Positions 1,821-2,774 of a stretch of 51,038 nucleotides of DNA are shown piece by piece; position 1 is the stretch's first letter, and each line of letters begins with the position of its first letter. A program made the position numbers and the translations under genes. Below the pieces are notes generated by a model. The model was not told where the DNA came from, made no database searches, and saw nothing but the letters and a program-made list of their open reading frames with translations. The DNA comes from a virus. The stretch lies in the IMG/VR virus record IMGVR_UViG_3300036466_000132. One strand, given 5' to 3'.

Positions 1821-2774
1821 ATGACACAGAGCGAACTGAAAGAACTGACGAATCTCGGCGCTGAGCTGGGGGCTGCGAAGGCGGAGGTGGAGCGGCTGCG
1901 CGAAGCACTAGAAACCTGCGAGTCGTGGTTTACCAAGCACTCCCCAACAGCTCCCCTGATCGGCGGTTTCGGCGATGCAGAGCATCCGATGATCACCTTC
2001 ATCCGCGCCGCCCTATCCCAGCAGGCCGAGCCAGCCGACACCTTCACCGCCGTCGACATGGCCACAGCCGCAGCGCAGGGGTTCAGGGATGGGCTGGCGG
2101 CAGTAAAGCCAGCGCCAGCGCAGGATGAGCTATGGGCAGTCCATGCACAGGGGCCGGACGAACTGTACGCAGCATTCAGTCGAGAGGATGCCGAGCAGCA
2201 CGCTGCCGCGCTGAACGCACTGCCGATGCCGGCAGGCATTCAGGTATCGGCGGTGGTCATCGCCTCGCCCTGGTCCGCTGCCGAGCACTGGAAGTACTTG
2301 GCAGAGCAGGAGCGCGAGCATGCGGCTGAGCTGAAGGATCGGGCCGCGCAGACCGAGCAGCAGCCTGTCGAGGTGATGCGCTTCCAGCTCAAGCACCCGG
2401 ACACTGGCGATGCTCACGCCGTCGCACTCACTCGCCAGGAAGTCGCGGATGGCATGGAAGATACGCTGTACGAAAAGCTCGGCGACTTGATATGCCACTG
2501 CGAACCGGTCGGCGAAACGAACGTCGTGGACTGCAATTGCGACGAATACATCTACGAATTCGAGCTGGTGAACGCCGCCCCCATCGCGCAGACCGCCCCG
2601 CAAGGCAAGTTACGCATGGGCGACCTAGTACGCAAGACCAGCGGCAGCGAGTGGGAAGGCCATATCTGCGGCACCTACTCCACGGAATTGACGCCAGAGG
2701 GCTATGCAGTCGAGAGCGCGGCGCATAAAGGCAGCGTGCAGATCTACCCGGCTAAGGCACTGGAGGCAGTATGA
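1821..2774 (+). CDS. Multidomain protein with a C-terminal type II (DfrB/R67-like) dihydrofolate reductase SH3-like domain
   Basis: The last ~55 aa ([54 protein letters not shown]) align without gaps to R67 DHFR, including the SVQIY pore motif. The N-terminal 260 aa are coiled-coil and Cys/His-rich. Confidence 0.8.

Follow-up and report, generated by a model that had tools for sequence, protein, structure and literature searches.

A DfrB/R67-type domain closes a modular early protein of a temperate Pseudomonas-type siphophage

What is a dihydrofolate reductase (DHFR) domain of the kind known from trimethoprim-resistance plasmids doing at the end of an early phage protein? The question is raised by IMG/VR virus record IMGVR_UViG_3300036466_000132, a stretch of 51,038 nucleotides (hereafter the window) in which an open reading frame (ORF) on the plus strand at 1821-2774 encodes a modular early protein of 317 residues with a C-terminal DfrB domain. 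An earlier note on this DNA, made from the letters alone, had proposed such a domain, of the type of plasmid R67 DHFR, and had offered two readings of it should it be active: a mobile trimethoprim-resistance determinant or a reservoir form of the dfrB fold. Our own reading, which taken as a whole we consider probable, is that the domain would serve as a tetramerising, ligand-binding end module with a latent trimethoprim-insensitive DHFR activity, and that the gene, in its native setting, would not serve for resistance. The ORF begins at an ATG with AGGA 8 nt to its 5' side and ends with a stop codon at 2772-2774; the codon for K263 begins at 2607, and the last 55 residues match the string quoted in the note.

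The family assignment is secure. Pfam DHFR_2 (PF06442) matches residues 264-317 (2610-2771, plus strand) over profile positions 24-77 of 78, with 77.1 bits against a gathering score of 25 bits (E 9.2e-22). A phmmer search of the PDB returned R67 DHFR (1vie and five other entries) at an E-value of 1.7e-17, without gaps and with 36 of 53 positions identical (68%), in keeping with the "about two thirds" estimated by eye in the note; with such E-values, chance similarity was rejected. By tblastn, identity to the plasmid alleles is 73% for DfrB6, 69% for DfrB1, 67% for DfrB4, and 65% for DfrB2, DfrB3 and DfrB10. On a numbering in which the ORF position equals the R67 position plus 240, the ORF keeps K272 (R67 K32), W278 (W38), Y286 (Y46), S299 (S59), H302 (H62) and S305-V-Q-I-Y309 (S65-Y69), which include all of the matches that the note had listed. 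The segment from K272, the tunnel-mouth lysine, to W278, at the dimer-dimer interface, lies at 2634-2654 on the plus strand (roles as in PMC9835603 and PMC12486381), and the S-V-Q-I-Y pore strand, identical to that of R67, at 2733-2747 on the same strand.

These residues also place the domain within the wider family. Members of the wide DfrB family have a positive residue at position 32 and a nonpolar/polar/nonpolar/aromatic motif in the B4 strand; in cluster I, which holds DfrB1-10, the motif is VQIY, both the commonest pore motif and exclusive to this cluster (PMC12486381). The ORF has K272 at the first of these and V306-Q-I-Y309 at the second, and W278, S299 and H302 are present at the dimer-dimer interface. 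A single-chain AlphaFold2 (AF2) model built on 51 homologues gives predicted local distance difference test (pLDDT) values of about 71-86 for residues 264-317, and Foldseek superposes the modelled domain on 1vie with a root-mean-square deviation of 1.8 A over 51 columns (target template-modelling score 0.73, E 3.4e-5). The final 54 residues form a genuine SH3-like domain of the DfrB family and belong, with their VQIY motif, to the cluster I type; the ORF has every sequence feature of that family taken widely (PF06442) and, by prediction, its fold. It does not belong to the clinical DfrB1-10 set: its score of 89.1 bits with NCBIfam NF000331 (trim_DfrB) is below the cutoff of 137, its length is 317 rather than 78 residues, and its gene sits in a phage operon.

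The remainder of the protein consists of conserved islands alternating with variable cassettes, a pattern seen both in the protein (in an alignment of 51 homologues) and in the DNA. At least 199 IMG/VR contigs encode a relative of the ORF, and in the 80 of these that we fetched for locus comparisons, island DNA aligns with 52-77 loci and cassette DNA with at most 10. The protein opens with a long N-terminal helix, as the note had anticipated in calling this region a coiled coil (AF2 helix over residues 3-40, pLDDT 77-88; 1821-1940, plus strand). Within it, island 1 (residues 1-27) has L6, K7, G13, E15, L16, A19 and K20 invariant in the 51 homologues, and its DNA is common to 55-67 of the 80 loci. 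Residues 28-63 form a block that differs between homologues, followed by island 2 (residues 64-103; 2010-2129, plus strand), which is nearly invariant in the alignment, is present as DNA in 52-61 of the 80 loci and is partly disordered in the AF2 model. Variable cassette 2 (residues 104-173; 2130-2339, plus strand) is common to only about 10 of the related loci and recurs, at 53-74% identity, in P. aeruginosa Hollowayvirus and other phages unrelated to this one, as part of larger hypothetical proteins.

Two conserved linkers frame the next cassette. The first, RAAQTEQQP (residues 174-182; 2340-2366, plus strand), has R174, A176, Q177, T178, E179, Q180 and P182 conserved at 90% or more and pLDDT below 50 at residues 177-182; the second, rich in P, Q and A (residues 253-263; 2577-2609, plus strand), is conserved at 90% or more, joins the cassettes to the DfrB domain and has pLDDT below 50 at residues 251-260. 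Both are predicted to be disordered. Between them lies variable cassette 3 (residues 183-252; 2367-2576, plus strand), whose DNA (residues 190-245) aligns with none of the 80 related loci. PHROG family phrog_5504 matches its residues 193-249 (E 8e-9) and is the only family assigned to it, no significant Pfam or Foldseek match having been found. The CHC...CNC four-cysteine motif that the note had pointed out lies in this cassette, at 2496-2543 (residues 226-241), and may be a small metal-binding knuckle; the cassette is 43% identical to the C-terminus of gp126 of PAK_P5, a lytic Nankokuvirus, with all four cysteines kept. For the N-terminal modules Foldseek gave no significant match in PDB or BFVD, and Pfam gave DHFR_2 alone for the protein. 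The DfrB domain itself is the largest conserved DNA island of the region, common to 74-77 of the 80 loci. Across 1700-3300 of the window, the same mosaic of islands and cassettes extends upstream (about 1730-1790) and downstream (about 2900-2950, 3050-3100 and 3200-3260) of the ORF, which suggests linker-mediated shuffling across the whole early-left region.

This arrangement is the rule among its relatives, and the ORF belongs to a large family of early proteins, modular in build, that temperate siphophages of the Pseudomonas type encode. Dozens of database relatives cover its full length at 40-62% identity, nearly all with PF06442. The statement in the note that DfrB enzymes are normally free-standing proteins of about 78 residues describes the clinical alleles but not the family at large: in a sample of the 235 nearest domain-bearing homologues, 168 exceed 160 residues and only 22 have 100 or fewer, and the domain ends within 10 residues of the C-terminus in 187. 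Among 150 domain-bearing relatives the attached cassettes belong to 31 different PHROG families, and Pfam recognises in them, besides DHFR_2, only Lar and DUF551, once each. Two family members, P0025 and P0027, end directly after the last linker and have no DfrB domain. Other arrangements also occur: P0023 and P0032 carry the domain at the N-terminus rather than the C-terminus, and P0161 (157 residues) carries two DHFR_2 domains in a row, a natural parallel to the tandem R67 constructs made by engineering. As a measure of family size we rejected the count of 2020 cluster representatives matching the 55-residue domain, which is inflated by WD40-repeat proteins. Such proteins, for example P0126 and P0151 (STAND NTPase-WD40) and PDB 5yzv (PkwA), give cumulative spurious matches to the DfrB query.

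The note had also suggested that an internal ATG could yield a minimal free-standing domain. The codon is indeed there (2616-2618, plus strand; M266, equivalent to R67 M26), but as a start it has only a weak AAGG (2602-2605), 10 nt upstream, and the methionine is variable: among the 235 homologues the position is M in 158, L in 37 and I in 22, with L, I or F in about a third. M266 therefore appears to be a core residue, not a conserved start.

Could the domain be a decayed or non-functional remnant, a DNA joint that recombination has conserved within a mosaic irrespective of what its protein does? The mosaic of islands and cassettes, in which the domain is the largest island, is what such a joint would leave behind, and the copy in Pseudomonas phage PS-1 (see below) is frameshifted in its last strand. 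However, pairwise comparison of 77 different DNA versions of the domain (55 codons) gives a median ratio of nonsynonymous to synonymous substitution rates (dN/dS) of 0.26, with many synonymous differences (dS up to more than 1), and the reading frame is intact in 79 of the 80 viral loci. The functional residues are nearly invariant: across about 240 homologues, conservation reaches at least 97% at K32, W38, Y46, S59 and every position of S65-Y69 (K32 in 237 of 238, W38 in 237 of 240, S59 in 238 of 239, each pore-strand position in at least 232 of 239), with H62 kept in 213 of 239. From the dN/dS values and this residue conservation together, the domain is therefore under purifying selection as a protein and is not merely a recombination joint. 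The fold is, in addition, predicted with good confidence. On the dN/dS values we rejected the pseudogene or remnant reading, which we regard as hardly credible.

What the domain is selected for is better judged from the genome around it. The window has identical 127-bp ends (1-127 and 50912-51038) and is therefore a circular assembly, a complete phage genome of about 50.9 kb with a GC content of 0.60. By Pfam and PHROG matches, the minus strand encodes tape measure, tail tube, major capsid, portal, terminase, lysozyme, antiterminator Q, RusA and a DnaC-like loader, and the plus strand encodes, in order, a CI-like HTH-S24 repressor, Erf, a YqaJ-like exonuclease (whose gene spans the contig junction), SSB, small ORFs, the DfrB-fusion ORF, an HNH-AP2 endonuclease, an excisionase and a tyrosine integrase. 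The phage is a lambdoid temperate siphophage, and in view of this gene content the placement of the gene in the early-left operon of a temperate phage, as the note had it, is correct: SSB and exonuclease lie on one side and xis and int on the other, and the DfrB-fusion gene lies about 9 kb into an operon whose start adjoins the CI-like repressor gene. We found neither a promoter-like site nor a plus-strand terminator in 1-6200. The stop codon of the fusion gene overlaps, as ATGA at 2771-2774, the start of a downstream ORF of 106 residues (2771-3091, plus strand), as in a coupled operon; this ORF has no Pfam or PHROG match. Neighbouring gene order is preserved across the related IMG/VR loci. 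We infer Pseudomonas as the host from the phage matches; a scan of species-representative genomes did not fix the host, returning only two full-length relatives, both on contigs of metagenome-assembled genomes, with the remaining matches domain-only and mostly in Burkholderiales.

It is against this background that the suggestion of a mobile resistance determinant, a phage-borne gene that would protect lysogens or transduced cells from trimethoprim, has to be judged. The identity of 65-73% to clinical DfrB alleles, with every one of the key residues listed above present, speaks for it, as do a carrier that is a temperate phage with an integrase and the resistance conferred by environmental homologues on over-expression (PMC12486381; PMC9774602). 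But the domain falls well short of the NCBIfam DfrB cutoff (89 bits against 137), and the gene, which lies inside an early operon, lacks a promoter and a terminator of its own. Its GC content, within and around the gene, is 0.60-0.65, like that of the rest of the phage. No resistance-gene family turned up in the Pfam scans of the genome, and no integron or plasmid context was found around the gene, attC sites not having been searched for. Moreover, the family is old and diversified (dS above 1) and is widespread in environmental viral contigs, not in resistance contexts, and the conclusion of PMC12486381 is that trimethoprim did not drive the evolution of DfrB. We therefore hold a resistance role in situ to be very improbable. 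The other suggestion of the note, a reservoir form, is in line with what has been published.

Gene content bears equally on the possibility that the domain is an auxiliary metabolic enzyme, recycling dihydrofolate (DHF) to tetrahydrofolate during the burst of phage DNA synthesis and so feeding the host ThyA, in the manner of T4 Frd. The DHFR of T4-type phages (Frd), which has the FolA fold, is monomeric and, so far as is known, always paired with a phage thymidylate synthase, Td. This is the main rival to our reading, and co-expression with early replication and recombination genes would suit it, as would the near-invariance of the SVQIY pore strand and of K32 under purifying selection. Such a role has been argued for phage DfrB homologues beside ThyA, whose gene usually lies no more than 20 kb away, and a natural DfrB-ThyA fusion has been shown (PMC12486381). 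The window genome, however, offers no such partner: ThyA (PF00303), ThyX (PF02511) and DHFR_1/FolA (PF00186) had no match among the roughly 60 ORFs scanned, which took in every ORF of 200 or more residues on the coding strands of the circular genome, and the ORF is accordingly not part of a phage DfrB-plus-ThyA module. Host FolA is about 100-fold more efficient (PMC12486381), the domain is dispensable in P0025 and P0027, and it is always tethered to unrelated cassettes, a tether that a pure enzyme would not need. On balance we judge an auxiliary DHFR role unlikely.

The reading that we favour, that of a tetramerising, ligand-binding end module, draws for its steps of assembly and activity on R67 biochemistry and on published tests of homologues. 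Four copies of the domain would assemble with D2 symmetry into a tetramer around a single, positively charged central tunnel (K272; S305-Y309), which would bind NADPH and dihydrofolate and so permit a slow, trimethoprim-insensitive reduction of DHF, while the tetramer would bring four copies of the N-terminal modules together. The note had argued that a protein fused at the N-terminus could still tetramerise, that of R67 being disordered and dispensable. Attachment by a disordered linker does leave room for a tetramer to form, and published fusions bear this out: DfrB-H5 (365 residues), for example, forms tetramers and higher oligomers (PMC9835603) and is active (PMC9835603; PMC12486381). In addition, 114 of 123 homologues predicted to form tetramers were trimethoprim-resistant (Lemay-St-Denis et al. 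2023, 2025). Over-expression in E. coli would probably raise the minimum inhibitory concentration of trimethoprim; by the same analogy, the isolated domain very probably would confer resistance when over-expressed, and we set the chances of the full-length protein somewhat lower. In the phage itself the gene would be transcribed only with the rest of its early-left operon (Erf, exonuclease, SSB ... xis, int), once infection or induction has taken place, and would therefore not be a resistance gene for the lysogen. Since no thymidylate synthase accompanies it in the phage and it is an optional end piece on many combinations of cassettes, the domain's selected role would more probably be to oligomerise the attached modules, to bind a nucleotide-type ligand, or both, with DHF reduction as a side or auxiliary activity.

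Several points weigh against this account. We infer tetramerisation and catalysis from homologues, and the nearest tested relative, DfrB-H3, was neither expressed nor resistant (PMC9835603). The only key residue of R67 that is changed in the ORF, W45 to T, occupies a monomer-monomer interface position, although position 45 is reported as tolerant of change (PMC9835603). The N-terminal helix could impose another oligomeric state. The near-invariance of the pore strand seems to exceed what tetramerisation needs, as 18 pore motifs are active (PMC12486381), which leaves room for a real catalytic or ligand role. Finally, repression of the operon in lysogens is assumed from its lambda-type organisation.

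A further idea goes beyond this evidence. DfrB may have nothing to do with folate and be instead a conserved, oligomerising "plug" that binds nucleotides of the NAD(P)H or ADP-ribose type, which temperate Pseudomonas phages carry at the end of a cassette-shuffled early protein for host takeover or anti-defence, with clinical dfrB genes as escaped copies; such a plug might, for example, sequester a nucleotide-derived immune signal or deliver NADPH to the attached modules. Bearing on it are the at least 31 PHROG cassettes in the family and the one relative with a Lar restriction-alleviation domain. We consider it a long shot.

The negative result with DfrB-H3 deserves a closer look. The nearest named relative of the ORF is gp05 of Pseudomonas phage PS-1, annotated "dehydrofolate reductase" (BAR92343.1, 167 residues), and the published DfrB-H3-Seg primers, which encode ...QGKFRMG... 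and ...RWRQWM followed by a stop, match it and identify DfrB-H3 of PMC9835603 as PS-1 gp05. Like the ORF, gp05 carries the same linker (that at residues 253-263 of the ORF) ahead of the same DfrB domain, C-terminal in a longer early-operon protein, with recombination genes on one side and the integrase on the other. PS-1 differs in that the material is divided over three genes (gp07, gp06 and gp05) with other cassettes, the N-terminal islands of the ORF being carried by gp07, to whose N-terminus the N-terminal region of the ORF is homologous; a DNA methyltransferase, moreover, follows in PS-1 but not in the window. The two also end differently. The consensus ending of the family is ...AKALEAVDD and stop, and the window copy keeps it, as ALEAV and stop. 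PS-1 gp05 ends in ...AKRWRQWMTSADTRLTP and stop, with RWRQWMTSADTRLTP and stop in place of ALEAVDD and stop. In PS-1 DNA (AP014684; locus positions 5325-5380) the sequence after ...YPAK reads cgctggaggcagtggatgactag, and the adjacent frame encodes ALEAVDD and a stop. Judged from these sequences, gp05 appears to be frameshifted by 1 nt in its last strand, or else to contain a sequencing error there, and an unrelated tail stands in for the last conserved segment (R67 A73-E75). In the published tests neither DfrB-H3 nor the segment cut from it was expressed or conferred resistance (PMC9835603), and the frameshift is a plausible cause of both. DfrB-H3 is the sole tested member of the clade, and the negative result for the clade rests on a copy that appears frameshifted.

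Other features of the genome lie outside this argument. At 8306-10285 on the plus strand, opposite to the flanking lysis and tail genes, is a gene for a 659-residue acyltransferase-3 plus SGNH protein; this product is typical of an O-antigen acetylase "moron", and lysogenic conversion is more plausibly ascribed to its gene than to the DfrB fusion. The genome also contains, in separate places, at least four HNH-type endonuclease genes (3276-3776, 47962-48639, 37906-38733 and 33439-34563), comprising two of HNH_3 plus AP2, one of NUMOD4 plus HNH_3, and one of HNH; NUMOD4 plus HNH_3 takes the place of the DfrB domain in some relatives of the fusion (P0030). Just after the integrase, and overlapping its end as called, is a Lar-like restriction-alleviation ORF (5613-6014, plus strand), and a Lar cassette precedes the DfrB domain in one fusion relative, P0040 (328 residues).

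That a DfrB domain can be fused to a larger phage protein, with a Pseudomonas-phage example included, is already published (2023, 2025), and the picture drawn there is left unchanged by the window ORF. What the locus adds is a well-resolved context, the cassette architecture of its clade and the putative frameshift explanation for one published negative test. This clade of Pseudomonas phages has many members, and none of its DNA islands is better conserved than the domain. With its complete circular genome, the window illustrates in full context the environmental reservoir that could supply trimethoprim-insensitive DfrB enzymes for recruitment. An end-of-protein domain on interchangeable, linker-joined cassettes fits the published oligomerisation hypothesis, for which the clade has many natural fusions on offer.

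How, then, does the ORF compare with known systems? It shares with T4 Frd the standing of an early phage gene potentially reducing dihydrofolate during DNA replication, but the folds are unrelated and the thymidylate synthase partner is absent from the window genome. With R67/DfrB1 and DfrB2-DfrB10 (1VIE, 2RK1, NF000331) it shares 65-73% core identity, the key residues and the same predicted fold; the clinical proteins, in contrast, are 78 residues long, have W45 where the ORF has T, and reside in integron cassettes or plasmids rather than in a phage operon, and the ORF falls below the cutoff that defines them. The dfrB2-like ORFs of freshwater viromes, about 67% identical to DfrB2 and with their function left undetermined (Moon et al. 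2020, PMC7265639), are phage-borne like the ORF, but that study gives neither their domain architecture nor their surroundings.

The closest parallels are the larger DfrB homologues described in 2023 and 2025. DfrB homologues in UniProt range from 67 to 463 residues, with the SH3-like fold embedded among other domains, and those studied include DfrB-H3 ("a Pseudomonas phage", near a DNA methyltransferase) and DfrB-H4 (a Vibrio phage); DfrB-H2, H4, H5 and H6 gave trimethoprim resistance (PMC9835603, 2023). The later study took in 386 homologues, 20 of them viral, found K32 to be the most conserved residue, and counted 45 proteins of more than 160 residues, mostly with helical partners of unassigned role; tetramer-formers were associated with replication, recombination and xerC-type recombinase genes, and the native role proposed was oligomerisation or nucleotide binding, save where ThyA is adjacent or fused (PMC12486381, 2025). 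DfrB-H4, H5 and H6 and the proteins of more than 160 residues, DfrB-ThyA among them, resemble the ORF in setting the SH3 domain within a larger, mostly helical-bundle protein, and their neighbourhoods, like that of the ORF, are rich in recombination genes and tyrosine recombinases. They differ in that their partner domains are unrelated to the cassettes of the window ORF and in that several of them were shown to tetramerise and reduce DHF, both of which are predictions for the ORF.

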